A stretch of DNA of 64,000 nt from a bacterium (GTDB lineage Bacteria; SM23-31). Position 1 is the first letter of the stretch. Every line of letters begins with the position of its first letter. A model generated the notes under the pieces. That model searched no databases. It was given only the letters and a program-made list of their open reading frames with translations, and was not told the origin of the DNA. This document shows, piece after piece, positions 1 through 42,241 of this stretch. The stretch spans positions 1,038,065 through 1,102,064 of the forward strand of contig OZ244870.1 of NCBI GenBank assembly GCA_965221205.1, given 5' to 3'. Both the position numbers and the translations under genes were made by a program.

Positions 1-55
1 AGGATTGAGTGTCTTACTGTGCCGTGATTTGATCTAACGAAAGGTTCAAACGCTG

Positions 56-2674
56 GTGTCGAACACATTACTGTTCAACGACCTCAAACATTCCGTAAGC
101 GGATGGCGGCGGTGCGGGTATCCTTGTGATGATTACCCGCTGATCGGCTCTATACTCGACTACCAAACGGAAAAGCACGAAGAAAAGCACGAAGACCGTT
201 CAACCCAGAAGTTTCTGCGCGATCCCCAGTTCCTTGCCCTTGAAGTGTACTGGTATGTCCGCATTGTGTTGAAAACCCCTCATATCATAGACCTTTACAA
301 ACATTACTACACGGAAGACAAAAAAGGCTTTTTTGATGCGATTGGCGTTTCCATACCAGGAGACGCTTTGGATTATGTGGAAATAGACGGGGTTATTAAA
401 AAAATCAAGGAAAATGAAGATTTTGTAAAAGAGAAGAAAATTCAAGCCCTGCATGAAGCCGCGAAACTGGGTTATCCAAGCTATATCCTCGCCCTGGCGA
501 TGGGCGCGGGTAAGACCGTGCTGATTGGCGCGATTGTTGCCATCGAATTCGCCATGTCCATGCGTTATCCCGAAGGCGAAATCAGGTTTATGAAAAATGC
601 CCTTGTCTTTGCTCCTGGCACAACCATTATCGAAAGCCTGCGGGAACTCAGCGGTATGCCCTACGAGAAGATTTTACCGCCCGACCTGAACCGTGATTTT
701 CTCGCCAATTTGAAGATTGAGTTTCCGGGCAAGGAAAAAGACATACAGGCACAGAGGGGCAGCAGTTATAACCTGATCGTCACGAATACCGAAAAAATCA
801 GTCTGCGCGCCAGACAGCGAAGCAACCAGGCACGACTGGCTTTTGAGCGCGAGGAAGTGCAGGCGAACCTGCTGCTCCAAAAAATCGCGAGTCTGCCGGG
901 TCTCGGAGTGTTTTCGGACGAAGCGCATCACACATACGGCAATACCTTCGACAAGTTAAAGCGAGTGCGGGAAACGATCAACTACATACACGATGAGCAG
1001 CCAATCGTTGCGGTCGTCAACACAACGGGAACGCCTTATTACAAGAAACAGCTCCTGAAAGAGGTGATTCTCTGGTATGGGCTTGGAGACGGCATCAGCG
1101 ATAACATTCTCAAAGACCTCAATAACGGGATTCACCAATACGACATCGGGGAGCAGTCGGAGCAGGGTGTGTTCCAGGATATCATCACGGTGTTTTTTAG
1201 CAGGTACGGTGATGTGTCGCTTCTCAATGGCGCGAAGGCGAAGATTGCTTTTTACTTCAAGACGCAGGAGCATCTGGAAACTTCCCGCGCCTTTATTGGA
1301 AGGGCAATGGCGGAGATGGGCGAGGATGTCTCCCAGATACTTGTGAACACGCAGAAATCCGGTGTCGCCGAGGTTGATGAATTCAGGAGACTGAACAATC
1401 CGACAAACCAGAAGCGGGTTATCCTGCTGATTGGCAAGGGTGTAGAAGGATGGAACTGTCCAAGCCTGTTTGCATGCGCCCTCATCAAGGAGCAGACGTC
1501 AAGCAGCAACTACGTTTTGCAGGCGGCGACACGATGTTTGCGGCAGGTTCCGGCAAACGCGCATTCGGCGAAGATATTCCTGGATTCCGGCAACGCAAAA
1601 ATTCTTGACAGGCAGCTGCAAGACAACTTCCGCACCGACCTTGACCGACTGAGTGCCGAAGCCGGGGAAAAGGAAACGGTCACCCTGCACATCCTCAAGA
1701 CGCAGCTCCCCACACTGGAAATCACCCGCACCGTGAAAAGAGCGGTCAGAAAGGGAACGCCATACGTGAACATTCACCTGGAAAAACCAACAGCGGAGGG
1801 CCCGCCCCCTATATTGCGCGGCATATTCACGCCCGATTTTAGCGGACCGGGAGAAATACTGATGCCCACGGGCGAAATGAAGGAGCTGCCCGCGGGAGAG
1901 CGCATTGTGGATTGTCATTCCGCCGCCTGGAAAATAGCCTCACGATACCATGTGCCGGTTATGCCGGTCCTTGAACAACTCAAACGTCTTTATCCAAACA
2001 GGGAAATGCCCCACGAGCATTTGTACGGGCTGTTCCGGCAGGTGGAAAAACAGGGAGCGAACTACGAAACAGTGGAAGACAAAATAACCGAAGCGATGGC
2101 ATTGATTCGGGTGCGGGATGAGAACGGAAAGGATAGTTTTGAAAAAGAAAACGATGTGTATGTTCACCGCTTGCGGGTGCTGAAACGGACTCATGACCGA
2201 ATGAAAGATAATGGTCTGTTGGCCGAAAGTGAGGAATATGAGGATAAGCACGATGTGAGTTTCCACTACACTCCCTACAACTTTGACAGCGGGCCTGAAC
2301 GTTCCTTCTTTCGGCAGATTTTGTCCGTGCTCAATGCAGCCCCCGATGATGTGGAGGCGTTTTTGTTCACGGGCGGACTCACAGACCAAAAGAAAACCGA
2401 CTTTCATTTTGAGTATCTCGGCGAGGACAAACGCTACCATCGCTATTTTCCCGATTTTGTGATTGTGAAGAAAACGGGCGAGTTTTATATTATCGAGATT
2501 AAGGCGGAGAGTGAGCGGGGAGATAAAACAGTGGAGGCAAAAGCCAAGGCAGTGGAACGGCTGCGAAATTTGCAGCCGGATAAATTCAAATATCAGGTGG
2601 TCTATACATCAACGACCATAACCCCACAGAACATCAAGCCCGTTACGGGCTGGATAAACGTACAGGAGAATTAA
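56..2674 (+). CDS. res: Type III restriction enzyme Res subunit (SF2 helicase with C-terminal nuclease-like region)
   Basis: 872 aa ORF with GTG start after in-frame stop at 35-37; Walker A-like ALAMGAGKT, DEAH-like VFSDEAHH, C-terminal PD-(D/E)xK-like FPDFVIV..EIKAE; homologous in architecture to the second Res at 33598-36411. Confidence 0.8.
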   Translation: MSNTLLFNDLKHSVSGWRRCGYPCDDYPLIGSILDYQTEKHEEKHEDRSTQKFLRDPQFLALEVYWYVRIVLKTPHIIDLYKHYYTEDKKGFFDAIGVSIPGDALDYVEIDGVIKKIKENEDFVKEKKIQALHEAAKLGYPSYILALAMGAGKTVLIGAIVAIEFAMSMRYPEGEIRFMKNALVFAPGTTIIESLRELSGMPYEKILPPDLNRDFLANLKIEFPGKEKDIQAQRGSSYNLIVTNTEKISLRARQRSNQARLAFEREEVQANLLLQKIASLPGLGVFSDEAHHTYGNTFDKLKRVRETINYIHDEQPIVAVVNTTGTPYYKKQLLKEVILWYGLGDGISDNILKDLNNGIHQYDIGEQSEQGVFQDIITVFFSRYGDVSLLNGAKAKIAFYFKTQEHLETSRAFIGRAMAEMGEDVSQILVNTQKSGVAEVDEFRRLNNPTNQKRVILLIGKGVEGWNCPSLFACALIKEQTSSSNYVLQAATRCLRQVPANAHSAKIFLDSGNAKILDRQLQDNFRTDLDRLSAEAGEKETVTLHILKTQLPTLEITRTVKRAVRKGTPYVNIHLEKPTAEGPPPILRGIFTPDFSGPGEILMPTGEMKELPAGERIVDCHSAAWKIASRYHVPVMPVLEQLKRLYPNREMPHEHLYGLFRQVEKQGANYETVEDKITEAMALIRVRDENGKDSFEKENDVYVHRLRVLKRTHDRMKDNGLLAESEEYEDKHDVSFHYTPYNFDSGPERSFFRQILSVLNAAPDDVEAFLFTGGLTDQKKTDFHFEYLGEDKRYHRYFPDFVIVKKTGEFYIIEIKAESERGDKTVEAKAKAVERLRNLQPDKFKYQVVYTSTTITPQNIKPVTGWINVQEN

Positions 2675-2676
2675 AC

Positions 2677-3066
2677 ATGAAAACGTAAAAGTTATTTATC
2701 AGTCATTCTTGGACGTATTCGGACGACTATGAGCGACTTAAGAAGTTACTATAGGAAAGAAGCTACTTTCATTTCAGAAAATACTCTGTGGAAAGTGATG
2801 AACCTAAAAATAATTGGGAAGAGATAGAACGTAATATAAAGTGGTCTACCGTCGTTGTCGTTATTGCAGGTGTGTATGCCAGTTATAGTTCATCAATAAA
2901 AAGAGAAGTGCGGTTGGCTAAACAAAATTCCAAGCCTACACTCGCTATTATTCCCTGGGGGAGTAACAGGACATCAGATATAAAAAATAAATGTGATGTT
3001 GTTGTCGGAGGGTACACCGACAGCATTGTCTCGGCAATAAAGGAATTGGCAAATGGATCAAGATAG
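2677..3066 (+). pseudogene. TIR-like (DUF1863/ThsB-like) domain protein interrupted by two in-frame stop codons
   Basis: Single reading frame from ATG 2677 to TAG 3064-3066 reads MKT*KLFISHSWTYSDDYERLKKLL*ERSYFHF..VVVVIAGVY..LAIIPWG; in-frame TAA at 2686-2688 and TAG at 2752-2754; FISHSW start and later hydrophobic core resemble TIR-like/ThsB architecture. Confidence 0.45.
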
Positions 3067-3508
3067 ACAGGAGCTTTTGGAAATCTATAAGCTTCACGCC
3101 GAACTTGCGGACAGGGTGAGCCAGAGACGGGAGGGGGCAAACAGGCTTTATGTAAGTCTGCTCGCGGGCATTTTTATTCTCCCTGCCGCTTTTCTAAAAT
3201 ATGGGACGGAAACCATTCCTGATTGGGTTATTGTGCTGGTAGCAGCTATTTTAGGCGGTTTTCTTTTTTTGTCGTGGTGTCTTATTATTCGTTCCTATTA
3301 TCGATTGGATAGGAGGAAATGCAAGGTATTGTGCGAGTTGGAAAAAAAACTTGTCTACCCTTTTTTCAAGCGCGAACGGGAGTTACTGGAAGAAGAAAAA
3401 AATATAAATAAATCTTGGGAGCTTATAGAGATTGAACATTTTCTTCCTTTTGGTTTCTTTATGGTTTTGCTGTACTTGTTTGTGTTTGGTGTCATCTATT
3501 TTTTTTAA
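3053..3508 (+). CDS. Small two-TM membrane protein, SLATT-like effector candidate
   Basis: 151 aa; N-terminal charged helix then two hydrophobic helices (LYVSLLAGIFILPAAFL and WVIVLVAAILGGFLFLSWCLII) plus hydrophobic C-terminus; ATG overlaps the end of the TIR-like ORF by 14 nt. Confidence 0.5.
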   Translation: MDQDRQELLEIYKLHAELADRVSQRREGANRLYVSLLAGIFILPAAFLKYGTETIPDWVIVLVAAILGGFLFLSWCLIIRSYYRLDRRKCKVLCELEKKLVYPFFKRERELLEEEKNINKSWELIEIEHFLPFGFFMVLLYLFVFGVIYFF

Positions 3509-3512
3509 TCAA

Positions 3513-5360
3513 ATGAACCCTCCCCTCAAAATAACCCCAGTAAAAGGCCGTCCGATGCTTCATTGGGTTGGCAAGAAGCCGCTCGATGTTGTCCGGCATT
3601 ATCCCGCGCAGTTGTGTGAAAGTGTTGGCGTTGAGAATCCACCTGTTGAGCCGTCTTATGCGGAATTCATCGAGAGCAACGCCAACCTGCTTTTTCACGG
3701 CGACAACAAGGAAATCCTGTCGTCTCTTTTGATCGCAGGGTTTCGGGGAAAGGTGGATTTAATCTACATCGACCCGCCGTTTGATTCCGGTGCGGATTAT
3801 GTCCGCAAGGTGAGGCTGCGCGGAGAGTCCGAAAGACTCGACGGTCAGGGCCACACTTTTCTGGAACAGGTGCAATACGAGGACATCTGGGCGAACGATA
3901 ACTATCTGCAATTCATGTATGAACGTCTGATTTTGATGCGGGAATTGCTGAGTGACACAGGAAACATCTTTCTGCAAGCTGATGACAAGAAAGGACACTA
4001 CTTGAAGATTCTTCTCGATGAAGTTATGGGAGAGAAAAATTACATCAATGACATTATTTGGCGCAAAGGAAGAGAAGGAGGCGGAGGCACGAAAGTTAAT
4101 CCTCCTCTGCCAACAGAATACCAAAACATCTATCTGTATGCCAAAAAACGCGACTCTCGAAAGTGGAACGCTCCACGCGGTCCCTATAACAAAAGCACTC
4201 TAAGTTCTTTGAAGAAAGATGAGAAGGGATGGTTTTATATGCGCGGTCGGATGGGACGACAGCCAAGACAATGGGAAATTGAAGCAGGCGTTGCGAGAAA
4301 AACTTATGTTAGTGAAAATCAGAACGAGTCAAGAGAGTCAGTTATACAAAGATTAACAACATTGGGAGGAAAGTTTGTCCTAATCGGGGACGTTTGGGAT
4401 TCTTATCTTATCAAAAATTCAACAAAAACCAATTACCCTACAGAGAAACCTGAGGCGTTGCTTGAGATTGCCATAAAATCGGGTACTGATGAAGGTGGAA
4501 TTGTTTTGGACTGCTTTTGCGGTTCCGGCACCACCGCTGCCGTTGCCGAGAAACTGGACCGCCGCTGGATCATGGCGGACATGAACAAGGGAGCGATTCA
4601 GACAACCATCAAAAGGTTGCAGGGTGTTATGGAGAAGAAAAGCAGCGACCTTGTAGAGAAAAACGGGCGCGGGCTTATTCACTATCGGGTGAACAACTAC
4701 GATTACGATGCCGCTGACCAGAATGAACTCAAGAAAATTATCGTTTCCAAATACGGCGTTCAGACAGACCGCAAGGATCTGTTTTTTGACGGAGTGGTTG
4801 GCGACGGGCAACTGGCGAAAATTGTTGACCTGGACAAACCGCTGACGCAACTGGACATTCAGATTATCAAGGATGAAATCGCACAGAACCGACCGGATGA
4901 GATGCGGGATATTACGGTTTTTTGCAACGGCTCGGAACTGGGAATTATGGGAGAACTTGCCAGGGAGAAAAACCCAATCAATACAATCACCGTCCGCGAC
5001 ATTCAACAGGATGGAATGATCACAAACCAGCCCGCCGAGGCAGAGGTTGAGATCAGCAAAAGCGGCGAAAGGGTGAAGGTGAAAATTGTCGATTACATCA
5101 GCCCCGCCATACAGGCCCGGCTGGAGAGTGACCGCACCATTTTTGATGAACGGATTGACGACTTCCGGGCGCAGATTGACTGCGTGCTCATCGACACCGA
5201 TTACAACGGTGAACATTTCAGAATAGTGGAAAGCGACCTGCCGGAGAAAAAAACCGATTTCATCAGGGCTAAGTATGAATTCACGCTGCCCCGTGCTGGC
5301 GCGAAAGTGGCGGTGAAAATCGTGGATATGCTCGGTGAGGAAGTTTTGACGGTCAAATGA
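3513..5360 (+). CDS. mod: Type III DNA methyltransferase Mod (beta-class N6-adenine type)
   Basis: Motif IV IYIDPPFDSGADY precedes motif I LDCFCGSGTT; start taken at ATG 3513 (MNPPLK) just after the stop of the upstream ORF at 3506-3508, rather than the ORF-track start 3432. Confidence 0.8.
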   Translation: MNPPLKITPVKGRPMLHWVGKKPLDVVRHYPAQLCESVGVENPPVEPSYAEFIESNANLLFHGDNKEILSSLLIAGFRGKVDLIYIDPPFDSGADYVRKVRLRGESERLDGQGHTFLEQVQYEDIWANDNYLQFMYERLILMRELLSDTGNIFLQADDKKGHYLKILLDEVMGEKNYINDIIWRKGREGGGGTKVNPPLPTEYQNIYLYAKKRDSRKWNAPRGPYNKSTLSSLKKDEKGWFYMRGRMGRQPRQWEIEAGVARKTYVSENQNESRESVIQRLTTLGGKFVLIGDVWDSYLIKNSTKTNYPTEKPEALLEIAIKSGTDEGGIVLDCFCGSGTTAAVAEKLDRRWIMADMNKGAIQTTIKRLQGVMEKKSSDLVEKNGRGLIHYRVNNYDYDAADQNELKKIIVSKYGVQTDRKDLFFDGVVGDGQLAKIVDLDKPLTQLDIQIIKDEIAQNRPDEMRDITVFCNGSELGIMGELAREKNPINTITVRDIQQDGMITNQPAEAEVEISKSGERVKVKIVDYISPAIQARLESDRTIFDERIDDFRAQIDCVLIDTDYNGEHFRIVESDLPEKKTDFIRAKYEFTLPRAGAKVAVKIVDMLGEEVLTVK

Positions 5361-5834
5361 TTCGGCTCTGTATAGAGATGCCCTAAAACGGTATATGAGA
5401 TATGAATGAAGAAGTTACGAATCACCATGTCTATTGGACATTGTTCTGGTGAAGTGAAAGCACATGCAGGAAAAAAGGTATTCCACACGGTATGCGATCC
5501 AACGAAAAGAAATAAGATATTCATGGAAGGTGAAAATGGGGATAGGATTTTTAATCTTAAATTGAATAGATTTTTAGAAGATAATCTCCAAGATTTTTGT
5601 ACGGAAGCGATTGACTGGCGGGGGGCATGCGGAATTTTGGCTCCATAGTTATACGACTGAATTTTTATTTATCTATATAATTCCCATTTAAATTCAGGGT
5701 AACATTTGTACACATTTAGTCTTTTGGGTCGAATAAGAAAACATTTGATCCGATGTTTTATTCGGGAAATTGGTCACCACATTGGCAGGCAGGAATGAGT
5801 TTAAAAAGCCTGTCCTCACTTTCCATACATAGTC

Positions 5835-6113
5835 TTAATAATTTTTCAATTGAGATCTTCGATAAGTCACGACTAAGCAGTTCTTCTCTAACTTTTTTTT
5901 AAGCAGCGCCAAATAATATTCAATCCGTGCTTTTCTATCTTCGTGATGAGCTTTCAGAATGTTTTGATAATTCATTCGTTGAGCAGTCAAGCTGATTTCT
6001 CTTACCTGAATCTCTTTACTCCAGTTAATCAGTATTTGTTGTGAGACTTTCAGAGTCTTTGCGATCGTATCAAAGGTTTCACCCGCTGTTCTCAGTTCAA
6101 ACGAATGTATCTT
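5835..6113 (-). mobile_element. Degenerate transposase-like HTH ORF fragment (no ATG start)
   Basis: Minus-strand open frame reads KIHSFELRTAGETFDTIAKTLKVSQQILINWSKE..; pattern resembles transposase N-terminal helix-turn-helix; lies in an AT-rich gap between Mod and the next gene. Confidence 0.2.
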
Positions 6114-6302
6114 TCACTTCCTGCTTATTCATCATCACGTTCTATACAATTCAATACCAGGAGGAGAATATATGAGTTGAGTATGGATGGTTGCTTTTTT
6201 GAATTCAGATCAGGCAAATCTTCATCTTCAACCTCAGGGGACACACAGAAAAAAGGTCTTCTTGAAATGTCAAACCCTAAAGTGTAACATTGCAAATAAT
6301 CA

Positions 6303-9014
6303 TCAATACGAAAACCAGTGGTTAAATTTCACGAGAAAGACATTCGTCGGGTAGAGGTCGAACAAGTCACGGACATCGTCATTAAATGCGAAGGTGCCCG
6401 GCCGGCCGTCGCCAGTCCTGCCCTGTGACCAGACGAGAAACAGCGTCGATCCCGGATTGTACTCCCACCTGACAACGAGATTCGACCGGAACTGAAGAAA
6501 ATTGAATTCGGGATTCTCGAAGGAATACACAGCCCCATCATCGACAGTATACTCATCACTCGCAGCATCATAGGTAATTTCACCATCGGTAAAATTCCGG
6601 AACCGATCGGTGTAATTATCCGCCCGCTGATTGGTGGTTTTCTTGAAATTGCTGTATTGGCCGTTGGAGATAAAAGGCTGGCCGTAATACTCAATAGTAA
6701 ATGTCGGTGTAATGCTGTAACTTGCACGAGTCACAATCCCAAGCGTTTCCTGATTCAATTCACCAAAGACATAACGCCGCGGCCCGCCGTTTGATTCAAA
6801 CGTGTCAACATATTGGAGGTTCATCGAATGTTTCGTAAAAGTCGGATTGATATTAAACGAAAATGAACTGCTCGGGCGAAACGTCGTTGTTACCTGATGC
6901 TGCTTCATATACGATTTATCGTCATCCCAGATATCCCATGTGTATCTGTACGAAACCTGTATATTTCTCCGCGTATCAGAACTGATGTTGGTATGCGAAT
7001 GCCAGATTCCGGGGTTGATAAAATATGGGCCGCCGCGAAGAACAGTTTTAGTCAGGCCTTCATCATACCGGTGAGAACCTATGCCGAATCTTCCATAATT
7101 TTTAAGAATACTGTCAAAATGTAAATCCACACCCGATTTAATGTCATCAGCAAACGCAATCTTTTTCCCGTCAAAATCCCATACACTGTTCTGCTTGAAT
7201 TTTAAGGTAAAACTTCTGAAGAGCCAACTCGGATTATACGACCAGTACTCCAATGCCGCAACTTCACCGACAAAATCCGCTTCTTTCAGGAATCCGATAT
7301 CGTTCAATTCCAGTCCCGGTGACCGCCATGTCGTCAAGAGGCTGTACTTGATATGCCCCTGACCAGCTTTCCCTATCGTAAATGTTCCGCCGTGCCCGGA
7401 AAGTGATGTGGCTGTCGAATCGACTTCCACATGGTTGGCATCGGAACGTTGAAAGTAGCGGGATGAAGCGGTCTGAGCGCGGAGCATCGCCTCGCTGTTG
7501 CCCCGGATATGACTGAATACCGACATAAATGACAGAAAATAGTTTCTGTTATCCCAGGTATGAGAAAAATCAATTCCGCCGGTATAAGCCGCTTCATTCA
7601 GAAATTTGAGATGACTATCCTGAAGGTTCCGGTTCGTCGCTGTCACAATCCCACCCAGTCTTGTGTCGCCGCTTCTGAAATCTTGCTGTACCCGTCCGGC
7701 GAAATAGTTTGTCATCGGCTCAACGGTTGTTGATCCCCGTACCCCTAAGTTAAGAAAATCGGCTTTTTCCTCTACCGTGACTGCCTCGATGATGCCGATT
7801 GAAAGACCATTCTGTGTTTTGCCCGACAGTTTTGCTGCCGCCGCTATGCTCGATTGCAGTACAGGTTCTACATAATCGATATCGCCATCTTCTGGCGAAT
7901 ACTGCGGCGCTCTCCCGATCCGGCGGGAATAAAAAAGGTTGTCCTGCGAACTAAACCGTTGAAACCGCAAGGCATTTTGGGGACTACCGCTTCTCTGGAT
8001 ATTTTGAGACAAATTTTGTTTAATCTGATAATTAAAAATGTTCTTTCCTTCGGTAAAGAACGGCCGTTTTTCAGCGAAAAACGACTCAAAAGCCGTTAGA
8101 TTGACTTCGGAAGGATCGGCCTCAACCTGCCCGAAGTCGGGATTCACAGTCAGATCAAGAGTAATATCACTTGTCACGCCGATTTTAGCATCCACTCCGG
8201 CATGAAAATTGTTGTCCTGTCCGGATGCAAAAGGATTTCCGGCTTCTTCAAGCGATCTCTCCATACTGCTGAGGGTATAGGGCAATATCTCAATCCGGCG
8301 CGTTGTTCCGATATCTTGGATACCGCGCAGTTCTCCAAAGTGGCTGACCGTCCCGGCAGCGTCCCGGAAGAAAAACTGCCAGAATGAACGTTCCTCTTTT
8401 CTATAGAGTCTCCGCTCGATCTGCAGTCCCCAGACCTGTTCTTTCTGGTCGGAATACCGGAGCTGGCTGAACGGTATGCGCATCTCGGCAGTCCATCCCG
8501 ATTCATTGTGGGCAACGTCTGCGTACCAGACAGGATCCCACGTAATATCCTGTGTTTTTCCATCATTCGAAATAAACGTGTCACCTTTCACACCCGCAGC
8601 TGTAACCGTAAAATTGAACGCAGTTCGCCTGTCAAAATAGCTGTCGATACTGATGCTCACCCAGTCGCCGTCATTCACATCGCGGCGGGATCCGCGCCGT
8701 TCGATTTTTCCAGACTCATTATCATTCATACGGAAAGCAATACAAATATTTTCTTCGTCATAAATAATTTTAAAAGCAGTCGTTTGACTCGGCTCTGTCC
8801 CTTCATATGGCTGCCGCTGGGTAAATCCGCCTCCCCATTCAGCATACTGCCATGCCTCATCGTCCAGAATCCCGTCGATAACCGGACTGTTTGCGTCAAA
8901 AAGCTCTGCGGTATAGACTTTGTTTTCAACAAATCGGCCATTTTCCGTACCACTGTTCTGCGAATAGAGGGCAACCGGATAGAGCAGCATGAGCGTTATA
9001 ATAACGTTTTTCAT
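6303..9014 (-). CDS. Large secreted protein, DUF5916/CBM9-like family candidate
   Basis: 903 aa with N-terminal signal peptide (MKNVIITLMLLYPVALYSQ) and C-terminus ending in aromatic residues (HWFSY); family assignment from memory only. Confidence 0.55.
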   Translation of the reverse strand: MKNVIITLMLLYPVALYSQNSGTENGRFVENKVYTAELFDANSPVIDGILDDEAWQYAEWGGGFTQRQPYEGTEPSQTTAFKIIYDEENICIAFRMNDNESGKIERRGSRRDVNDGDWVSISIDSYFDRRTAFNFTVTAAGVKGDTFISNDGKTQDITWDPVWYADVAHNESGWTAEMRIPFSQLRYSDQKEQVWGLQIERRLYRKEERSFWQFFFRDAAGTVSHFGELRGIQDIGTTRRIEILPYTLSSMERSLEEAGNPFASGQDNNFHAGVDAKIGVTSDITLDLTVNPDFGQVEADPSEVNLTAFESFFAEKRPFFTEGKNIFNYQIKQNLSQNIQRSGSPQNALRFQRFSSQDNLFYSRRIGRAPQYSPEDGDIDYVEPVLQSSIAAAAKLSGKTQNGLSIGIIEAVTVEEKADFLNLGVRGSTTVEPMTNYFAGRVQQDFRSGDTRLGGIVTATNRNLQDSHLKFLNEAAYTGGIDFSHTWDNRNYFLSFMSVFSHIRGNSEAMLRAQTASSRYFQRSDANHVEVDSTATSLSGHGGTFTIGKAGQGHIKYSLLTTWRSPGLELNDIGFLKEADFVGEVAALEYWSYNPSWLFRSFTLKFKQNSVWDFDGKKIAFADDIKSGVDLHFDSILKNYGRFGIGSHRYDEGLTKTVLRGGPYFINPGIWHSHTNISSDTRRNIQVSYRYTWDIWDDDKSYMKQHQVTTTFRPSSSFSFNINPTFTKHSMNLQYVDTFESNGGPRRYVFGELNQETLGIVTRASYSITPTFTIEYYGQPFISNGQYSNFKKTTNQRADNYTDRFRNFTDGEITYDAASDEYTVDDGAVYSFENPEFNFLQFRSNLVVRWEYNPGSTLFLVWSQGRTGDGRPGTFAFNDDVRDLFDLYPTNVFLVKFNHWFSY

Positions 9015-9226
9015 AATTCTAGTTCTTCATTACAGTGTTTCTTGCTCAATTTAACTAATTTCTGATATTAGTACAATCAGAATTACAGATTTTTCAAGAA
9101 AAAACGGGTTTTTTCAGCAAAATACCATCGAATTTATACGCATATAGACTCGACAAAAACTCCTTAATACAACTTGTGCATATTTAGGTGGTTATTTGTG
9201 GGAACTGGGATCATTGCAAGTGTTTC

Positions 9227-10559
9227 TCACACGTATATTATAACGAAGGAAGGCTGCAATTTATATATGGTATTACTATCAGTATTTTTATACATATTTC
9301 TCGTATCAAAGATGCACGTGCTGTTTGCCTCCAGGTAACCGTAGTCGATTTTCTCGTGGGCAGTCACAACCACCACACAATTATACGATTGTAACAACTT
9401 TTTATCATCAAGATCGATAGAATTATAGGTCGTTCCATTCAGATGTTCAAATGTGTCTACATACGGATCATGATAATCAGCATAACACCCGAACTCTTTC
9501 AGCAGTTCGATTAATTCAAGCCCCGGAGGATTCCCGCAGGTCGTTCACGTTTTCTTTATAAGGGATACCCATTAATAGAATTTTCGCATCTTTCAGGGAA
9601 ATCCCCTTCTCATTGACAATTCGCAGCAGCTTATTAATAACAAACCGGGGCATATTACCGTTAATGTCAGTCGCAAGATCGATGGATCGGTTGTAAAAAT
9701 TGAAACTGCGCGCCTTGTAGGTAAGGTACATAGGATCGAGTGGGATACAATGTCCGCCTAATCCGGGGCCGGGCAAAAATTTCATGAATCCAAATGGCTT
9801 CGTCCCGGCAGCTTCTATTACCTGCCAAATATCGATCCCCAGCCTGTCGCACAGAATCGCCATTTCGTTGACAAGGCCGATAGTAACCGCACGAAACGTG
9901 TTCTCAAGCAGTTTCACCATTTCCGCTTCTTCTGACGTAGTGACAGGGTGAATTTCTGAGATAATATGTTCATAGAGCAGTTGTGCAATCTCTCTGCGTG
10001 CAAGTGTAATACCCACGATCACCTTGGGAATGTTCTTCGTGGTATATTTCTTATTACCAGGATCAACACGCTCAGGAGAAAAAGCGATATAAAGGTCTTT
10101 GCCGATTACAAATCCCATTTTTTCAAACTCATAAGCAAGAAGCTCGCGCGCTGCTCACAGGATAAGGTGTGCTTTCCAGAACGATGAGCATGCCTTTACG
10201 AACATGCTTTTTTACCCCATCAACAGCAATCTTAATGTACGAGAGATCAGGCTCCTTCGATTTGTTGAGTGGCGTTGGAACGGTTATGCAGATACAATCC
10301 GCATCGTTCAACTGCAAATAATCGGTGTAAACTTCAAAATGGCCGTTTTTTGCCGTTATTGACAGCATTGCTGACTTCCCGGTCTAATATACGATGTCCC
10401 GCTTTTGAGCTGTGAAATTTTCTCTTTGGCACTATCGATGCCCACCACACGGTAACCGGCCCGAACAAATTCGAGGCTTAACGGCAGCCCAACATAGCCG
10501 AGACCGATGACCCCGATTCGGGCGCTTTTGGCGTTGATCTTTTTACGTATCTGTTCCAT
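9227..10559 (-). pseudogene. Nucleotide-sugar dehydrogenase (UDP-glucose/GDP-mannose dehydrogenase family), multiply frameshifted
   Basis: Three ORF-track pieces in different frames: 10356-10559 (Rossmann GLGYVGLP), 10129-10368 and 9516-10118 (GGHCIPLDP catalytic region); a fourth C-terminal piece without ATG (ELIELLKEFGCYADYHDPYV..) runs to a TGA at about 9227. Confidence 0.7.
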
Positions 10560-16540: not shown

Positions 16541-17494
16541 GTGAATCAAGAGATATTAGATATTAAACAAGACATATTTCAATCGCACTATGAAATAGTA
16601 TTAGGTGATACTCTTGGAAATTTGCGCAAGACAGAATCGGAAAAATTTAATTTAATTATTACTTCACCTCCATACAACATTGGGAAAAATTATGAAACAA
16701 AACAACCTATTGAAACTTACCTAAGTCAGCAAGAAGAAGTTATTGATGAATTGGTGAGAATAATTTCCAATCAAGGAAGTATATGTTGGCAAATTGGAAA
16801 TTATGTAAATAATGGTGAAGTTTTTCCATTGGATATATACTATTATCAAATTTTTAAAAAGCATAATTTATTTTTAAGAAATAGAATAATATGGCATTTT
16901 GGACATGGTTTACATGCTTCTAATAGATTTTCAGGAAGATATGAAACAATATTATGGTTTACAAAAAGCAATGATTATATTTTTAATTTAGACGAAGTTA
17001 GGGTGCCATCAAAATATCCGGGCAAAAAGCATTTTAAGGGTCCAAAAAAAGGAAAGTTTTCTGGTAATCCTAAAGGTAAAAATCCAACTGACATATGGGA
17101 GGTTTTACTGAGTGATTGGGAAAAGGAAATATGGAATATCCCAAATGTGAAATCTAATCATCCTGAAAAAACAATACATCCCTGCCAATTTCCAATAGAG
17201 TTAGTTGAAAGATTTATTTTAGCGCTTACTAATATAGGAGGTTGGATTCTTGATCCATATGCTGGTGTAGGTTCTTCAATTATTGCCGCTATAAAAAACA
17301 ATAGAAATGTAATTGGAATAGAAAAAGAAATTGATTATGTCGATATAGCAAAGGATAGAATAAAAAAACTGTTTGAAGGTAATTTAAAGCTCAGACCTAT
17401 GACAAAGCCTATCCACCAACCTTCACCAAAAGATAAAATTGCTAAAATTCCTGAAGATTGGCTGTTTGATAATAGAGAAGGTAATACTCAATGA
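16541..17494 (+). CDS. DNA methyltransferase, beta-class (N4-cytosine or N6-adenine)
   Basis: Motif IV TSPPY precedes motif I LDPYAGVGSS; GTG start; stop overlaps the next gene start (ATGA). Confidence 0.8.
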   Translation: MNQEILDIKQDIFQSHYEIVLGDTLGNLRKTESEKFNLIITSPPYNIGKNYETKQPIETYLSQQEEVIDELVRIISNQGSICWQIGNYVNNGEVFPLDIYYYQIFKKHNLFLRNRIIWHFGHGLHASNRFSGRYETILWFTKSNDYIFNLDEVRVPSKYPGKKHFKGPKKGKFSGNPKGKNPTDIWEVLLSDWEKEIWNIPNVKSNHPEKTIHPCQFPIELVERFILALTNIGGWILDPYAGVGSSIIAAIKNNRNVIGIEKEIDYVDIAKDRIKKLFEGNLKLRPMTKPIHQPSPKDKIAKIPEDWLFDNREGNTQ

Positions 17495-18105
17495 AAATTG
17501 CACAAAAATATTCACATTTAAATGGAGAAGAATACTTGATAGTTCACCATAATAAGTTATACTCTGAGATTAAGAGAATTATTCAAAGTATCGATGCGGA
17601 TAATTTTAAAACAAAAATTAGTAAAGAGAAAACTAAAAAAGGTTTAAAGCTTTATAGCCCAATAGGATTGAATAAAGTATTTGATAAGTTGTTTTCAGAG
17701 AACAATTGGAAGGAAAGTAGATATCAGTACTATATTACACTCAATAGGGAATTAATGGAAAAAAGCATTTTACTTCCGGCTAAAGAACAAAAGGATTTTT
17801 TAGTTTCATCAGGTGAAAAAGAGCCATTATTTTCATACAACCAAACAGATTTTGTAAAAGAAAAGATTGCAGTTGAGATGCAATTTGGTAAATACTCATT
17901 TGTTGCATATGATTTGTTCGTAAAGCATATGTTGTTTTACTCAGGTGGTATTATAAATCTAGGGATAGAAATATTACCTACTAAAAAGATGCAATCTCAA
18001 ATGTCGTCTGGAATTGCATATTTTGAAGGAGAGGTTTATAACGTTATGCGGCATGGAAGAAATAACCCACCAATTCCTTTGCTAATAATTGGTATTGAAC
18101 CATGA
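17491..18105 (+). CDS. Type II restriction endonuclease, BglII/BamHI family
   Basis: 204 aa; block VEMQFGKYSFVAYDLFVKHMLF closely parallels BglII TLVEVQFSNYPFLLNNTVRSELF (recalled from memory); 4 nt overlap with the methyltransferase. Confidence 0.65.
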   Translation: MKIAQKYSHLNGEEYLIVHHNKLYSEIKRIIQSIDADNFKTKISKEKTKKGLKLYSPIGLNKVFDKLFSENNWKESRYQYYITLNRELMEKSILLPAKEQKDFLVSSGEKEPLFSYNQTDFVKEKIAVEMQFGKYSFVAYDLFVKHMLFYSGGIINLGIEILPTKKMQSQMSSGIAYFEGEVYNVMRHGRNNPPIPLLIIGIEP

Positions 18106-21894: not shown

Positions 21895-21969
21895 TGGTGG
21901 AGCTGTGGGGAATTGAACCCCAGCCGTCGGGTGCAAACCCCGATGTCCTCACGCCATGAGAACGGCCCC
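21895..21969 (-). tRNA. tRNA-like element (75 nt) with canonical T-arm and Ala/tmRNA-type 3' end CAGCUCCACCA but atypical D-arm
   Basis: Minus strand reads GGGGCCGTTCTCATGGCGTGAGGACATCGGGGTTTGCACCCGACGGCTGGGGTTCAATTCCCCACAGCTCCACCA; T-stem TGGGG/CCCCA with loop TTCAATT; acceptor has a G3-U pair and one C-A mismatch; anticodon-like loop GTTTGCA; 4 nt D-to-anticodon linker is non-canonical. Confidence 0.35.
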
Positions 21970-33597: not shown

Positions 33598-36411
33598 TCA
33601 AGCGCCGCCAATGCCCGCGTGGCGTGAAAGAATGCTCTGAATATCACCGGGGGCTCTCGATATATCCCCTGCCCAGCGGCCAAAGCCGCCATGCGCGTTG
33701 ACGGCGGTGATCCATTCGTCGAGAAACCGGCGTTTGGTTCGGTCCTGTTCGCTGTCCTGTCCCTTGGTTTCCAACACGAGTATGTCGCCGGACCTGAACC
33801 GGATGAGGAAGTCGGGACGGTACTTCCGCACCACGCCGCGATGGACGTAGAACACTTCGAAGCCCAGGTGATCGTTTTTCACCCAGGCGGCGACCTCGGG
33901 GGCGTGATCGAGGGCAAAGGCTTCCGACGATTCCCAGGTGCTGTCATAGACGCAGAAATTGATATGGCTGCGCGCCGTGGGCTCGCAGGGCCTGCCGGTG
34001 TACCATGTCCCCATGTCGCCGGTTGAACGGATGGGCCGGTCCCGGTCGAACACCGGCTCCAGACTCTCGGTGTTCTCGAAGCGGATGGCTTCCCAGATAT
34101 GCTGGACCACCTTGGTCATGTTGAGCGTGATGATGAGACGGCGCTTGAGATCGTCGCGGAGGAATAGTGCAGGCGTGATGCTGATTCTGTCCGAACGGAT
34201 GAATTGATCGACCAGCCGTACCAGTTGGGCCAGCAGGAATGCTTTGCCTCCCCGCCAGTTCTTTTGCATTTGGTCGTAAACGTCCCGCGCGGTCTCAAAG
34301 ATAATCCGCTGTGTCCGAAACTCCCGCGCCAGATTCTCCAAGTCTATAGCCTCGATCTTCGTCACGTCCGGTTTGCCGGCGACGATTGGGGCAAGCTCCG
34401 CGATTCTTACGGTCCTGCCAACATCGAGTTCCAGGCTTGCCACCTTGTTCCAATCCAGGGAGAGCTGCGGTCGGTATACGTGGTCGATGCGGATCACGTT
34501 CGGCCAAGAGATTTCGAAAGCCGCTTTGCCCGTTACCGGCTCAATAGCGGTCTTTGGCGTTGGCGGCGGTGGAGGGCCGCTCTCTCCACCTTCGTGGGGC
34601 AGAAAAGTGAAGGGCACGCCGAAAATATTGACGTACTCCGGCTCGAACAAACCGTTGTTCGGGTTCACATCGTAAGATGTGCGGCGCAGGCCGCGTCCGA
34701 CGACCTGTTCACAGAGAAGCTGGCTGGTGAACGCGCGGAGGCCCATGATGTGTGTCACGGTCTTGGCGTCCCATCCCTCGGAAAGCATCCCGACGGAGAT
34801 CACATTCTGGATCAGCTCGCCCGTTTTCCCAGGTTGGCCCACGGTGTTCACCTGCGAGCGCAGCAGCTCGGCTTGCTGTTTTTTGGTTAGCTTGCGTGAG
34901 GGGCCGCCGTTCGCAGCTTCTTCGCTCTCGCCAGCGCCGATCTCCGCGATCGGCTCCTCGGCGGCCTCGGCCGCGTCAAGTACCCTTGAGTCGATATGAA
35001 GGGTTCGCGCCGGGTCGCAAAGCTCGCTGATACGGACTCTGCTGTGGTCGAATGCGTACTTGATCCGGGCTGCGGTCTCGGTGCGATTGGCGACGGTGAT
35101 CATCACTGGCGGGGTTTTGGACCCGTCCTTTCTCCATTGCTTAGATGTCTCGCGCCAGTCGAAGCCGAGAAGGCAGTAGCCATTGACCACCAGGTCCGGC
35201 AGCGGTTCTTCGGGCTTGGCCCGCCGGTTTAAGTCGTCCTTGACCTCGGCATCGTTGTAGATGTGGTAGAGGCGGGATTTGTAGGTCGTGACGTCAGGTA
35301 CCGCATCGTCGCGAATCACGACGCGTGGGGTCTTGACCAAACCGGACTCGATGGCGTCGTTCAGGCCGAAGTCGCTCACGATCCAGCCGAACAGCGCCTC
35401 CTCGGAACTCCGTTTACCCGATGGCGCGAAGGGCGTGGCGGAGAAGTCGCAGCAAGCGAGAATGCCCCGCGCCCTGTCGATCCGATCCAGGCCGCCAACC
35501 CACTTGGTCGCTTCCTCGATTTCATCCCTGGCAACACCTTTGACCTTGGATTCGGCGGGAACGCGCCAGGCGTGATGCGCTTCGTCATTGATGACAAGAA
35601 TGTTCCGGGCGTTCGCCAAGTCGCCCAGAACCTCGCGGACATAGGCTTCGTCGCTCTTGGATCTCCGTTTATCTACGCTGCGTTTTCCGGCAATCCTCTC
35701 ATCGGTCTCCCAATTGAGTGCGTGCCAGTTGCGGACCACGACCTTGCCTTGGCGCAGCTTGTCGAACAGGGACGACGGAACGACGTGGAAAGCTTTGTAG
35801 TAGTTCTCCGCATGAGACGGTTCCAAGACGGCCAGACGGTTCTTGACCGTGAGTCCCGGAGCGATAACCAGCACGTTTCGGGCGAATCGCGCATCCTGGG
35901 AATAGGTGACCTTGTTCAGGATATGCCAGGCGATGACCATGGCCATGACGACGGTCTTGCCCGAGCCGGTCGCCATCTTTGCGCACAACCGCCCAATCGG
36001 CCCGCCATCGGAAGGGATGTCAACGCCAATTTTCTCGGCCGCTGACGCTTCGGCAAGCCAGATCAGCGTCTCGACAGCCTCCAGTTGGCAGAAGAAAAAT
36101 CGACGGTTATCGAACTCCTCCGGGTTCGTCCAGTGCTCCAACAGCCGCTTCGTAATTCCCGTGACACCCGGATACCCGGCTCCACGCCACGCCCGTACAC
36201 GCGGACGAATCCGGTTGACCAGGGGAATCTCGACGAAATGGCCCGGATCATCGAACGATCGGGAGCCCTCCGAGGCAATGACGTATCCGGCCGGCCGGCG
36301 GCCTTGCGCACGGTCGAAAAGGCGCGTCTGGCGGTCGTAGCTCCAGTGTTGGCCCGGCTCCTCGTAGGGAGAGTTGATAATCAGGCGATCGATGGTTGTT
36401 TGCGCCATCAT
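33598..36411 (-). CDS. res: Type III restriction enzyme Res subunit
   Basis: Walker A ATGSGKTVV, DEAH box VINDEAHH, helicase C-terminal motifs; start ATG 36411 (MMAQTTIDRLIINSPYEEP) overlaps the hepT stop (ATGA); inside the GC-rich island. Confidence 0.85.
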   Translation of the reverse strand: MMAQTTIDRLIINSPYEEPGQHWSYDRQTRLFDRAQGRRPAGYVIASEGSRSFDDPGHFVEIPLVNRIRPRVRAWRGAGYPGVTGITKRLLEHWTNPEEFDNRRFFFCQLEAVETLIWLAEASAAEKIGVDIPSDGGPIGRLCAKMATGSGKTVVMAMVIAWHILNKVTYSQDARFARNVLVIAPGLTVKNRLAVLEPSHAENYYKAFHVVPSSLFDKLRQGKVVVRNWHALNWETDERIAGKRSVDKRRSKSDEAYVREVLGDLANARNILVINDEAHHAWRVPAESKVKGVARDEIEEATKWVGGLDRIDRARGILACCDFSATPFAPSGKRSSEEALFGWIVSDFGLNDAIESGLVKTPRVVIRDDAVPDVTTYKSRLYHIYNDAEVKDDLNRRAKPEEPLPDLVVNGYCLLGFDWRETSKQWRKDGSKTPPVMITVANRTETAARIKYAFDHSRVRISELCDPARTLHIDSRVLDAAEAAEEPIAEIGAGESEEAANGGPSRKLTKKQQAELLRSQVNTVGQPGKTGELIQNVISVGMLSEGWDAKTVTHIMGLRAFTSQLLCEQVVGRGLRRTSYDVNPNNGLFEPEYVNIFGVPFTFLPHEGGESGPPPPPTPKTAIEPVTGKAAFEISWPNVIRIDHVYRPQLSLDWNKVASLELDVGRTVRIAELAPIVAGKPDVTKIEAIDLENLAREFRTQRIIFETARDVYDQMQKNWRGGKAFLLAQLVRLVDQFIRSDRISITPALFLRDDLKRRLIITLNMTKVVQHIWEAIRFENTESLEPVFDRDRPIRSTGDMGTWYTGRPCEPTARSHINFCVYDSTWESSEAFALDHAPEVAAWVKNDHLGFEVFYVHRGVVRKYRPDFLIRFRSGDILVLETKGQDSEQDRTKRRFLDEWITAVNAHGGFGRWAGDISRAPGDIQSILSRHAGIGGA

Positions 36412-36602
36412 GCAGTCTCCGGTAGCACCAGCGGTTCGATGAGGTTGATGAGACGGGGAATGTCCTGTTGTGCGGTCTTCCACACATGCTTCAGGTCAAC
36501 CTCGAAATAGGCGTGTACGAGGCGATGTCGCATCCCAGCGAACTCCACCGCACCCCGCGCTGCCAGCAGCATGTCGAGCAGACAGGCATCGTCATGCCGC
36601 AT
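36408..36602 (-). CDS. HEPN-domain toxin (HepT/DUF86-like), short form
   Basis: R-x4-H-x-Y motif in GMRHRLVHAYFEVDLKHVW; start overlaps the mntA stop. Confidence 0.55.
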   Translation of the reverse strand: MRHDDACLLDMLLAARGAVEFAGMRHRLVHAYFEVDLKHVWKTAQQDIPRLINLIEPLVLPETA

Positions 36603-36903
36603 AGATCGTCTCGGCGGATTGGAGGATTGCGGCACGGCGAATGTAGTTTCGGCTCTGTTCGACCGCCGTGCGTTCGAACAGGTCTACCTCCCGGCCGAGT
36701 ATCCGAGCCAGATCGGCCTGCATTCGCGCCATGTCCAGAAGTGTGTGGCGCGCTTGTTGCTCGAAACGCACCAGTACATCCACATCGCTTTCCGGTCCGA
36801 AGTCGTCCCGTAGCACGGAACCGAACAGCGACAGTTCGACGATCCGCCAGCGTTTACAAAAGTCGGCTATCTCGTCTCGCGGTGTGTCGATATGTACACT
36901 CAT
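36592..36903 (-). CDS. Nucleotidyltransferase (MntA-type antitoxin)
   Basis: GS-x9-DxD motif LFGSVLRDDFGPESDVDVLV; start taken at internal ATG 36903 immediately after the upstream stop at 36906-36908. Confidence 0.7.
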   Translation of the reverse strand: MSVHIDTPRDEIADFCKRWRIVELSLFGSVLRDDFGPESDVDVLVRFEQQARHTLLDMARMQADLARILGREVDLFERTAVEQSRNYIRRAAILQSAETIYAA

Positions 36904-36905
36904 GC

Positions 36906-37748
36906 CTATAACACTTGGTTCGCGTCGACATTGAAGCCGACACTCTTTAGCTCCCGAATAAGTCTTAGCTTCCAACCATCCGAGCCGTCCAACGGAATGT
37001 AAATGACTCCATCATAGTCCGAGGGCGTCTCTACGTTACCTTTCACCAAAGTGCAGACTCGCTCTCGACCGAGTTTGCCAATGAAGTACCCGAATTCGAA
37101 AATCACGTTCTGTCTCGCCCGTGGCTTTTGATTCTTCTTGTCGTCCGCAAGCGCGCCCACGTCGTCCGGGGTCAGCAGGACCACCGCGAACCCAACTTGC
37201 GCATGTTCCTCAAACTTCTCGATGATCGTGCGGCCCTTATTCGGTTGTTCGTGCAGGATTACCGGTTCAAGATCCAGCCTTTCTAGGAATCTTGCAACCG
37301 TTCTCCGAGCAGATTCGTCGTGGCCATGGATGACGAAAACTCTGTTACTGCTCGATCGTTTGTCGATTCGTTCCGAGTCAAGCGCTGAAATGTCACTTTG
37401 ATCTATGGGTTGCGTTGGCGTCTGGTTTTCATCAGACCAATACTCCTCGATCTCCTCGATCATGGATTCGAGTACTGCGGCCGCTGATTCCAAGCCTTTC
37501 ACATAAACTTCCTGGCGTTCTGACTCAGGCGGCTCAAAGTAGGCAGGGGCAGGAGAAAAACGGATATTTTTGAAGTCTCCAATGTGGGCCGACTTGCTCT
37601 CAAACGTGTTGGTGATAGCGACCTCTGTGTTTCTTTGCCACTTATCAAACTCAGGTGAGCGGTACTTTAGGTTTTTTAATTTGGGTATTGCATCCAATGC
37701 TCTCCGCAGGCGCTCCAGACCCTTGGCTTTTATTGGTCGCGCCATCAC
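36906..37748 (-). CDS. TIR-like nucleotide-binding protein (COG4271/PF10137-like C-terminal domain) with unknown N-terminal domain
   Basis: C-terminal block RVFVIHGHD..FAVVLLTPDD..ARQNVIFEFGYFIGKLGRERV..PSDYDGVIY matches the TIR-like family pattern recalled from memory; start overlaps the Mod stop. Confidence 0.6.
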   Translation of the reverse strand: MMARPIKAKGLERLRRALDAIPKLKNLKYRSPEFDKWQRNTEVAITNTFESKSAHIGDFKNIRFSPAPAYFEPPESERQEVYVKGLESAAAVLESMIEEIEEYWSDENQTPTQPIDQSDISALDSERIDKRSSSNRVFVIHGHDESARRTVARFLERLDLEPVILHEQPNKGRTIIEKFEEHAQVGFAVVLLTPDDVGALADDKKNQKPRARQNVIFEFGYFIGKLGRERVCTLVKGNVETPSDYDGVIYIPLDGSDGWKLRLIRELKSVGFNVDANQVL

Positions 37749-40172: not shown

Positions 40173-40490
40173 TCAACTTTTGAGGGCACGGTCAGCATCA
40201 AGGTTTGTTATTTTTTTCATACGTCCACTCTCATCAAAGAATTTTCCAATATCATACGTAAGTGAGTTTTTCATTACCTTCAATACATCATCAGCCTGAA
40301 GTTCAACTCGTTCTTTTCGTTCCTCCGGAGCATTCGAAATGAAAGTTTGAATCAGAGATTTTCTCAGGTTTTCATAATCTATTTCACAAGAAGTTTTTTG
40401 CTATACCGAGAAGGCACGGCCGCTGCAGATGCATTAAGATCAACAAGACACTCTTTCACATTCACACACTGGACAATATACGTAGAATAA
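40173..40490 (-). pseudogene. Phage terminase small subunit (TerS-like) remnant, frameshifted
   Basis: Minus-strand frames read ..LVDLNASAAAVPSRYSKK then TSCEIDYENLRK..NAPEERKERVELQADDVLKVM..; frame switch at a T6 run (plus 40394-40399). Confidence 0.4.
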
Positions 40491-40595
40491 TTAAGTAAAT
40501 GAGGAAAATCAAGTAATTTATATTAATGTTGTATAGAGGGTTTATAATATTACTTAATTAAGTCAATGGTACTTAATTATTTGTTTAGATAAGTT

Positions 40596-42017: not shown

Positions 42018-42241
42018 TATTCCTAGTCCTTATTTTTATGTAAGTTTCGATCTATTTGTTGAGATACATATCACCTTGCAATAAGCTGCTGTATAAACAT
42101 TCTTGCATAATCATCCCTGTTTTGCTATATTACGGCGTAATTCAGCACCTCAGCATATCGCTTTGTAAAGTGTTGTTTTTATAAGTATATAGTGAATGTT
42201 ATAAGGCTGGATTTTACTACTTCATAACGGAGGATATATTC

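Follow-up and report, generated by a model that had tools for sequence, protein, structure and literature searches.

The window, as we call the whole 64,000-nucleotide stretch of bacterial DNA that was analyzed, carries on its forward strand an operon of four genes in the order res, TIR, 8xMP, and mod that are separated by only 2 to 4 nt or overlap. The first of them (res; positions 56 to 2674) is intact and encodes a probable type III restriction subunit of 872 amino acids that matches Pfam family ResIII with 25.7 bits (cut-off 22.5) and shares 69% to 74% full-length identity with the Res proteins of 861 to 864 amino acids encoded at the related loci L003, L005, L015, and L034. Its C-terminus matches a TnsA-like nuclease profile only weakly (21.2 against a cut-off of 26.5), and PADLOC gives no match for Res. 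The last gene (mod; 3513 to 5360) is likewise intact and encodes a type III N6-adenine/N4-cytosine DNA methyltransferase of 615 amino acids (PF01555, E 6e-43; PADLOC profile MTase_III, E 1e-57) with 59% to 62% full-length identity to Mod of L003, L005, L015, L016, and L034. In canonical type III restriction–modification (R-M) systems, mod is directly followed by res, whereas in the window res comes first and two genes lie in between, an atypical order that is kept in L003, L005, L015, L034, L084, and L166. The inner genes are a TIR reading frame (2677 to 3066), whose ATG follows the res stop codon (TAA 2672–2674) after 2 nt, and 8xMP (3053 to 3508), which encodes a membrane protein of 151 amino acids with three predicted transmembrane helices and a putative effector role (PF24838, E 5e-25). 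Scanning positions 1 to 6400 for promoters and terminators gave counts equal to those in shuffled sequence and is therefore uninformative about separate expression of 8xMP or mod.

Read in a single frame from ATG 2677 and without any frameshift, the TIR gene encodes MKT, a stop codon, KLFISHSWTYSDDYERLKKLL, another stop codon, and then ERSYFHF...ELANGSR up to a terminal TAG at 3064–3066, which is exactly the peptide, with exactly the stop coordinates, given in a preliminary description of this DNA. Its assignment of the gene as TIR-like also holds: With the stops masked, the translation reaches 43.7 bits (E 3.9e-11) against PF08937, Pfam's "Thoeris protein ThsB, TIR-like domain", and thus lies above the gathering threshold of 21.2 that defines membership. 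This match covers residues 7 to 97 and runs across the second stop, the PADLOC profile ThsB recognizes the same masked translation (E 3e-7), and a database search retrieved 331 homologs, the best of them 85% identical. Within this family, the gene belongs to a short, ThsB-type subfamily of 125 amino acids whose roughly 20 close members (122 to 125 amino acids; 65% to 85% identical) are all uninterrupted, and the nearest intact homolog, P0001 of locus L002, is 85% identical at the amino acid and 92% at the nucleotide level. The 21 residues separating the two stops include LFISHSW, the most conserved motif of the family. Glu77 (codon GAA), invariant across 44 homologs, is retained as well and, judging from its motif in the helix that follows the AGxY strand, is probably the counterpart of the catalytic glutamate of characterized ThsB proteins. 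An AlphaFold2 model of P0001, i.e., of the intact homolog and not of the window sequence, has a TIR/flavodoxin-like fold (pLDDT 82) with strand beta-A at residues 3 to 9 and helix alpha-A at residues 12 to 26, and its best matches in the PDB are a Bacillus cereus TIR domain (8fz9; TM 0.74), MTH538 (1eiw), and the TIR domain of SPARTA. Where an intact ThsB-type TIR gene has one uninterrupted open reading frame over the whole domain, in the window copy this frame is broken by two nonsense codons, the native stop codon is gone, and residue 112 is changed (W112G).

What each stop replaces can be read from the intact copies. Stop 1 (2686–2688) is codon 4, inside strand beta-A, and its context of ACT TAT AAT/C in the four intact copies of L002 and L170 has become ACG TAA AAG in the window as well as in L001 and L171. 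Stop 2 (2752–2754) is codon 26 at the end of helix alpha-A, where CTA GAG GAA of the second TIR gene of L002 (TIR-b) corresponds to CTA TAG GAA in the window; the first base of this codon is G in all four outgroups. Because TAT at codon 4 and G at the first position of codon 26 are shared by these sister copies and the outgroups, including the more distant L166 and L003, we infer that single substitutions turned Tyr4 into an ochre and Glu26 into an amber codon. Around 20 homologs cross both positions with Tyr (TAT) and Glu (GAG), so that frame and homolog codons together bear out the earlier proposal of an inactivation by two nonsense substitutions without frameshift, and selenocysteine is, as had been stated, irrelevant for stops that are TAA and TAG. 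Neither residue is strictly conserved, with Tyr, Phe, or the start Met at position 4 and Glu, Gln, Gly, Lys, or Ala at position 26. Since one subgroup of homologs begins one codon past stop 1 (MNLFISHSW), this stop alone would strike a dispensable residue. Stop 2 is the decisive truncation and cuts the protein after helix alpha-A, and the window offers no ATG, GTG, or TTG between the two stops. We also considered that the change of ACT TAT AAT into ACG TAA AAG was one complex mutational event and rejected this, because three substitutions within 7 nt are expected by chance in simulations (P ~0.55; for changes at three consecutive third positions, P ~0.06); a donor copy of ACGTAAAAG was not found elsewhere in the window.

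The gene has further lesions beyond the two stops. Homolog alignment revealed W112G (TGG to GGG; 3010–3012) in the GWNTES motif at a tryptophan that 20 short-type homologs share without exception and that reaches at least 90% conservation across 44 family members. The adjacent N113Y is likewise specific to the window, and together with N5K and R122K these make up four window-specific replacements in columns that are at least 90% conserved among the 44 members. In addition, alignment with L002 showed that a 1-nt deletion destroyed the native TIR stop codon by converting GCG TAATG into GCA AATG (3049–3055). In L002, L003, L083, L166, and L170, the TAATG forms a one-base overlap between the TIR stop and the 8xMP start, and all TIR homologs end in ...ELA; because one T of this junction is missing in the window, the frame there continues for four extra codons (NGSR) up to the TAG at 3064–3066.

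The substitution pattern points to relaxed constraint as well. When we used four outgroups to polarize the 29 differences that separate the window from L002 TIR-b, 2 of them stayed ambiguous, and 21 changes (12 nonsynonymous, 2 nonsense, and 7 synonymous) fell on the window branch, roughly 3.5 times more than the 6 of the sister branch, of which 4 are nonsynonymous and 2 synonymous. The ratio of nonsynonymous to synonymous changes is raised on the sister branch, too, though on tiny counts (4:2). Pairwise omega is 0.06 to 0.15 among intact members and 0.415 between the window and L002 TIR-b with the stops excluded. Our case for relaxed constraint is made up of the branch counts, the stop loss, and W112G and is not one of wholesale divergence: With 3 deviations at conserved columns compared to 0 to 6 in intact homologs, the window copy is, W112G aside, within the range of its relatives, and we rejected the notion that it is an outlier in private deviations. 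Because of this, the knock-out may be fairly young, and the "recent" inactivation of the preliminary description stands insofar as conservation is otherwise within homolog range; it does not fit equally well with the loss of the native stop and an invariant tryptophan, the 3.5-fold substitution count, and a degenerating partner gene. The knock-out is thus neither brand new nor ancient. The gene was knocked out by the changes of TAT to TAA and GAG to TAG, and W112G, the stop-destroying deletion, and the excess of substitutions over the sister copy reflect drift that followed or was already under way.

Decay seems to extend to the neighboring gene. The reading frame of 8xMP is still open in the window. 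Among the 68 columns with at least 90% conservation, however, its protein departs from consensus at 14 (N86D, G88R, W109R, and Y121S are examples), while its 42 homologs depart at the same columns 2.3 times on average and 10 times at most. Its nearest relative is only 70% identical, omega between the window and L002 is 0.67 for this gene, and an AlphaFold2 monomer model is all-helical at low confidence (pLDDT 67, pTM 0.40). With so many radical changes where 8xMP is otherwise conserved, decay appears to affect the module as a whole and not the TIR gene alone, and res and mod keep their full length beside it. Literature searches for 8xMP, octameric membrane protein, or PF24838 returned nothing relevant, and a sequence search for a solved 8xMP structure found none. 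Taken together, we consider it very probable that 2677–3066 is a genuine, heritable ThsB-type TIR pseudogene within a seemingly decaying TIR and 8xMP module that is enclosed by intact R-M genes.

Related loci show how variable the slot between res and mod is. The Res/Mod lineage that is defined by the 69% to 74% identity of its Res to that of the window houses TIR cassettes between the two genes in several arrangements: res-TIR-8xMP-mod in L015 and L034, res-TIR-SLATT-TIR-8xMP-mod in L003 and L084, res-TIR-TIR-SLATT-TIR-8xMP-mod in L166, and a variant of this nested organization in L005. A third state of the locus itself is found in L170, a 3.83-Mb contig at 29x coverage that is syntenic with the window and 95% identical over the DUF5916 gene downstream and a sugar dehydrogenase pseudogene. 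There, about 1.45 kb are missing from the interior of res, which is followed by a first cassette of a long-type TIR gene and a truncated 8xMP, a duplicated res 3′ end, and a second cassette that carries another, long-type TIR allele. The breakpoints map to conserved stretches at either end of the TIR gene (the first ~60 nt and the last ~40 nt), and L002 is intermediate between the states of the window and L170. Recombination at the conserved 5′ and 3′ ends of the TIR genes and at the res 3′ end appears to swap the cassettes. Several of these loci are damaged, with a replaced or truncated TIR 5′ end in L083, a frameshifted TIR gene and a split mod in L084, an 8xMP gene cut beside an insertion sequence in L168, and a frameshifted, truncated 8xMP in the first cassette of both L002 and L170, so that disruption of the module is recurrent. 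This agrees with the rapid turnover of defense loci but could also reflect a cost of the module. Scanning JGI metagenomes yielded only distant long-type relatives (at most 53% identical) and no further pseudogene copies. In a scan of GTDB genomes, among which the genome of the window was not contained, relatives came from marine or host-associated metagenome-assembled genomes, e.g., of Latescibacterota, Poribacteria, and Pseudohongiella.

Could the two stops be errors of sequencing, polishing, or assembly that hide an intact gene, as the preliminary description had considered with its mention of substitution errors? In principle, consensus errors could account for two substitutions inside 70 nt, and two of the related contigs, L001 (2x coverage) and L169 (1x), clearly contain single-base indel errors. 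Yet, the same bases are found in three assemblies. Besides the window, these are L171, a Logan assembly of run ERR13605531 that has 0 mismatches or gaps against window positions 1 to 5330 and was built with a different pipeline, though possibly from the same read set, and L001, a 7.9-kb contig (ENA ERZ25067264) that equals the window over 2251–6555 except for four single-A indels. Because L001 is around 5% divergent over positions 1 to 2250 (the 5′ part of res), it represents a haplotype of its own in which both stops were inherited as well. The loss of the native stop by deletion and W112G are atypical signatures of error, and long genes across the window are unbroken. An NDP-sugar dehydrogenase pseudogene with at least three frameshifts (~9015–10540, reverse strand) is split identically in the sister genome L170 at 29x coverage, and pieces of a P4-type primase and of a small terminase subunit are found at 40176–42029. 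Together with the intact long genes, these remnants argue for an accurate assembly and for a lineage in which real pseudogenes are tolerated. We therefore reject substitution errors as an explanation and consider the chance that the true gene is intact to be negligible. That a suppressor tRNA, a reassigned code, or programmed readthrough instead decodes the stops and lets full-length TIR protein persist, maybe at low levels that limit toxicity, would be in line with the well-conserved remaining TIR sequence and with the tolerance of positions 4 and 26 to variation, where any inserted amino acid might be acceptable. It would, however, demand decoding of two different stop codons in a window where all three stop codons end normal genes (TAA 16, TGA 16, and TAG 8 times among 40 nonoverlapping open reading frames of at least 150 amino acids), which makes recoding unlikely. 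TAA and TAG thus terminate 24 of these 40 frames, among them res, whose TAA precedes stop 1 by 12 nt and lies where its homologs end too, and TAG also closes the pseudogene itself. The only tRNA in the 64-kb window is tRNA-Gln(UUG), and hence no suppressor tRNA is encoded there. Because no tandem repeat lies near the stops and no Rfam family reaches gathering score anywhere in the window, we also discarded phase variation or a recoding signal at the stops, and the additional loss of the invariant tryptophan and of the native stop/start junction makes persistence of a full-length product highly improbable. A residual function might alternatively reside in the 92-amino-acid open reading frame from GTG 2788 to 3066 on the forward strand, which gene callers list as product P0012 and which could act as a truncated TIR protein, e.g., as a regulator or decoy for 8xMP. 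Its frame is open, it keeps a weak ThsB_TIR score and the conserved Glu77 region, and its 3′ end overlaps the 8xMP start. Conversely, it lacks residues 1 to 37 and with them beta-A, alpha-A, and the next strand as well as six invariant positions (L6, F7, S9, H10, S11, and W12), it carries W112G, no start-site signal was found for it, and none of the 331 homologs starts there by design; the other two short ones go back to a rearranged 5′ end (L083) and to a frameshift (L084). We find such a function very unlikely, and P0012 (annotated as "ThsB_TIR", 92 amino acids) is best viewed as a pseudogene fragment and left out of any count of Thoeris components.

A different question is why the gene was lost, and here one alternative is compatible with the pseudogene reading: The module may have been costly through autoimmunity or leaky membrane toxicity, so that knock-outs were selected and swept. 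This would fit the independent disruptions in L083, L084, L168, L002, and L170, the occurrence of two nonsense mutations within the first 26 codons, and the report that an ion-channel Thoeris candidate from Vibrio was too toxic for testing in E. coli (Yirmiya et al. 2025; bioRxiv 10.64898/2025.12.03.692087). On the other hand, defense genes turn over fast even without a cost, degeneration of the effector is expected under neutrality once either partner is lost, and nearby genes without a role in defense are pseudogenes, too, as seen with the NDP-sugar dehydrogenase. Selection for loss is thus possible but on balance not what we would expect, and we view the dead TIR gene as ordinary gene decay at a fast-changing defense locus. 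A defense gene killed by nonsense mutations is routine and of little significance in itself.

What the intact module would do can be approached through its relatives. Of 80 genome loci retrieved with the TIR family, 58 have 8xMP immediately beside the TIR gene, and a one-base overlap of the two genes is seen in at least five loci. Because R-M genes are absent from the surroundings of most of the 58, TIR and 8xMP form a self-contained mobile pair. Yirmiya et al. (2025) recently defined Thoeris types V to XI and listed further putative effectors. In the part of their Table S1 that was accessible, around 100 TIR proteins of cluster 2734565194 are labeled with a "3TM" effector, a type that was predicted from defense-island enrichment and was not among the 30 operons assayed (bioRxiv 10.64898/2025.12.03.692087). 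Also grouped in this cluster are the type IV ThsB of E. coli 328 and the TIR proteins of types VII (SLATT effector, cADPR signal) and VIII (bioRxiv 10.64898/2025.12.03.692087). One accessible "3TM" entry of Table S1, IMG 2676542066, is 100% identical to the TIR protein of L052 (Anaerobium acetethylicum), and the neighbor of this gene matches PF24838 with an E-value of 2e-41, so that "3TM" corresponds to 8xMP in at least one case. From the sequence side, the TIR and 8xMP pair thus seems to match the putative "3TM" Thoeris configuration, with the equivalence of the two names drawn from this one entry. The resemblance lies in a TIR protein of the same cluster encoded beside a small protein with three transmembrane helices, as the window 8xMP has three hydrophobic helices, while the window module differs by being nested in an R-M operon and by its decay.

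Comparison with ThsB of other Thoeris types points in the same direction. With 46% identity to the type IV ThsB of E. coli 328, the window TIR shares with ThsB the motifs LFISHSW, AGVYASYS, and GWNTESIV as well as the conserved glutamate and is likewise a small single-domain protein encoded beside an effector gene; unlike those ThsB proteins, the window copy is dead as a result of its two nonsense codons, W112G, and the loss of its stop. Its short subfamily of 122 to 125 amino acids lacks about 7 loop residues after the second strand (DEP-KNNW versus DDPIHTSGTDKEL) and was not found among the accessible Table S1 entries of Yirmiya et al. Type VII Thoeris, which pairs ThsB with the SLATT-domain protein ThsH and uses canonical cADPR, shares the TIR cluster and a small helical membrane effector with our module, but Pfam does not recognize 8xMP as SLATT and the window has no SLATT gene. 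In L166, a short-type TIR that is 77% identical to that of the window is paired with SLATT. By analogy with the Thoeris systems that have been assayed, an intact TIR protein of this kind would sense phage infection and produce an NAD-derived signal, which would then open or assemble 8xMP as a membrane-disrupting oligomer and abort the infection. The module of the window is not functional as such because its TIR gene is dead. The suggestion of the preliminary description that toxicity of an NADase-type effector might explain the inactivation needs to be shifted accordingly to the partner: TIR proteins of the ThsB clade that were assayed produce signaling molecules and do not deplete NAD+ (bioRxiv 10.64898/2025.12.03.692087), and the candidate toxic component is 8xMP.

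The locus documents natural decay and cassette exchange of a predicted TIR and 8xMP ("3TM") candidate Thoeris type, and the intact sister operons of L003, L015, L034, and L166 are better candidates for experimental work than the window itself. TIR/effector cassettes are found repeatedly inside type III R-M operons, and this nested architecture with its swapping is the part that we consider worth following; no description of such nesting or swapping was found in the searchable literature. Specifically, the slot between res and mod might be a docking site for one to three interchangeable Thoeris-like cassettes, of which the window would be a decayed example, in a two-layer composite of R-M and Thoeris. 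Both TIR-8xMP and TIR-SLATT cassettes occupy this slot with spacers of 2 to 4 nt to the R-M genes, but we put this idea forward tentatively and think it rather unlikely to hold in full. If it were true, an abortive-infection layer would be co-expressed with, or would guard, the restriction enzyme. The anticodon nuclease PrrC offers a precedent for an abortive-infection gene within an R-M operon, as it lies in the EcoprrI type Ic hsd locus. The likeness consists in a suicide-type module packed tightly into an R-M operon, whereas the proteins and the type of R-M system are different, the link of TIR and 8xMP to the R-M genes consists here in gene spacing, and in most genomes TIR-8xMP stands by itself. 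The same window also contains a second type III-like R-M locus, in which a different, intact TIR gene lies between mod and res.

The gene for the 8xMP membrane protein that lies next to the inactivated TIR gene (3053-3508, + strand) has an intact ORF. Of 68 columns that are strongly conserved in its family, 14 hold a non-consensus residue in the window (G88R, W109R, and Y121S among them), compared with a mean of 2.3 in homologs. The gene may be a "cryptic" pseudogene that carries no stop codon at all.

Two sister haplotypes, L002 and L170, each carry two TIR-8xMP cassettes (3340-4320 in L002 and 5600-6660 in L170) with a duplicated res 3' end between them, and in both the 8xMP gene of the first cassette has a frameshift and is cut short where it meets the junction. 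The TIR gene of the second cassette is of the short type in L002 vs. the long type in L170. Because the breakpoints of these cassettes fall within conserved gene ends, their sequences suggest that the TIR alleles were swapped by homologous recombination. The res gene of L170 additionally has an internal deletion of approximately 1.45 kb.

At three related loci, the interval between res and mod holds up to 3 TIR genes together with two distinct membrane effectors, SLATT_1/DUF4231 and 8xMP (L166, 4092-6555; L003, 4865-6821; L084, 3895-5871). The short-type TIR of L166, which is 77% identical to that of the window, is partnered with SLATT and not with 8xMP, and pairings of TIR proteins and effectors have therefore been shuffled. 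A further related contig, L169, has three adjacent TIR-based modules (3470-7160): ThsA_Macro with ThsB (type II Thoeris-like), TIR with 8xMP, and TIR with a caspase-like Peptidase_C14 (type IV-like). Its 8xMP gene is split, probably by a sequencing error; the coverage of this contig is 1x.

A TIR gene within an R-M operon is found a second time, in an unrelated case, inside the same 64 kb. In the second type III-like R-M locus (33598-40133, - strand), the genes for a methyltransferase (37971-40133, -) and for a restriction endonuclease of the BPTD_3080 family (33598-36483, -) enclose an intact gene for a CAP12/Pycsar-type TIR protein of 280 aa (36906-37748, -; PF10137, E = 2e-42). This locus is adjoined by degraded mobile-element genes in separate frames (40176-42029, -), namely remnants of a P4-type primase (a CHC2 zinc finger, Toprim, and Pox_D5) and part of a gene for a small terminase subunit. 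With a type II pair (16541-18105, +), composed of an N6/N4 methyltransferase (16541-17494, +) and an overlapping BglII-family endonuclease gene (17491-18105, +), the window encodes three R-M systems.

The pieces of a gene for an NDP-sugar (UDP-ManNAc/Glc-type) dehydrogenase (about 9015-10540, -) lie in frames 1, 0, 1, and 2, so that three or more frameshifts have disrupted it. In the syntenic sister genome L170, which has 29x coverage, this gene is likewise divided among three ORFs, and the pseudogene is therefore real and common to both.

ARAGORN predicted a tRNA-Gln(UUG) at 21895-21969 (-), where the Rfam scan at gathering threshold gave no entry at all. When Rfam was scanned by E-value, the tRNA family lost out there through clan competition to a tmRNA match below threshold (33.6 bits), and the missing entry looks like a reporting artefact and not a defective tRNA. 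This tRNA gene is located on the margin of a gene-poor stretch, after which the region of R-M and mobile-element genes follows.
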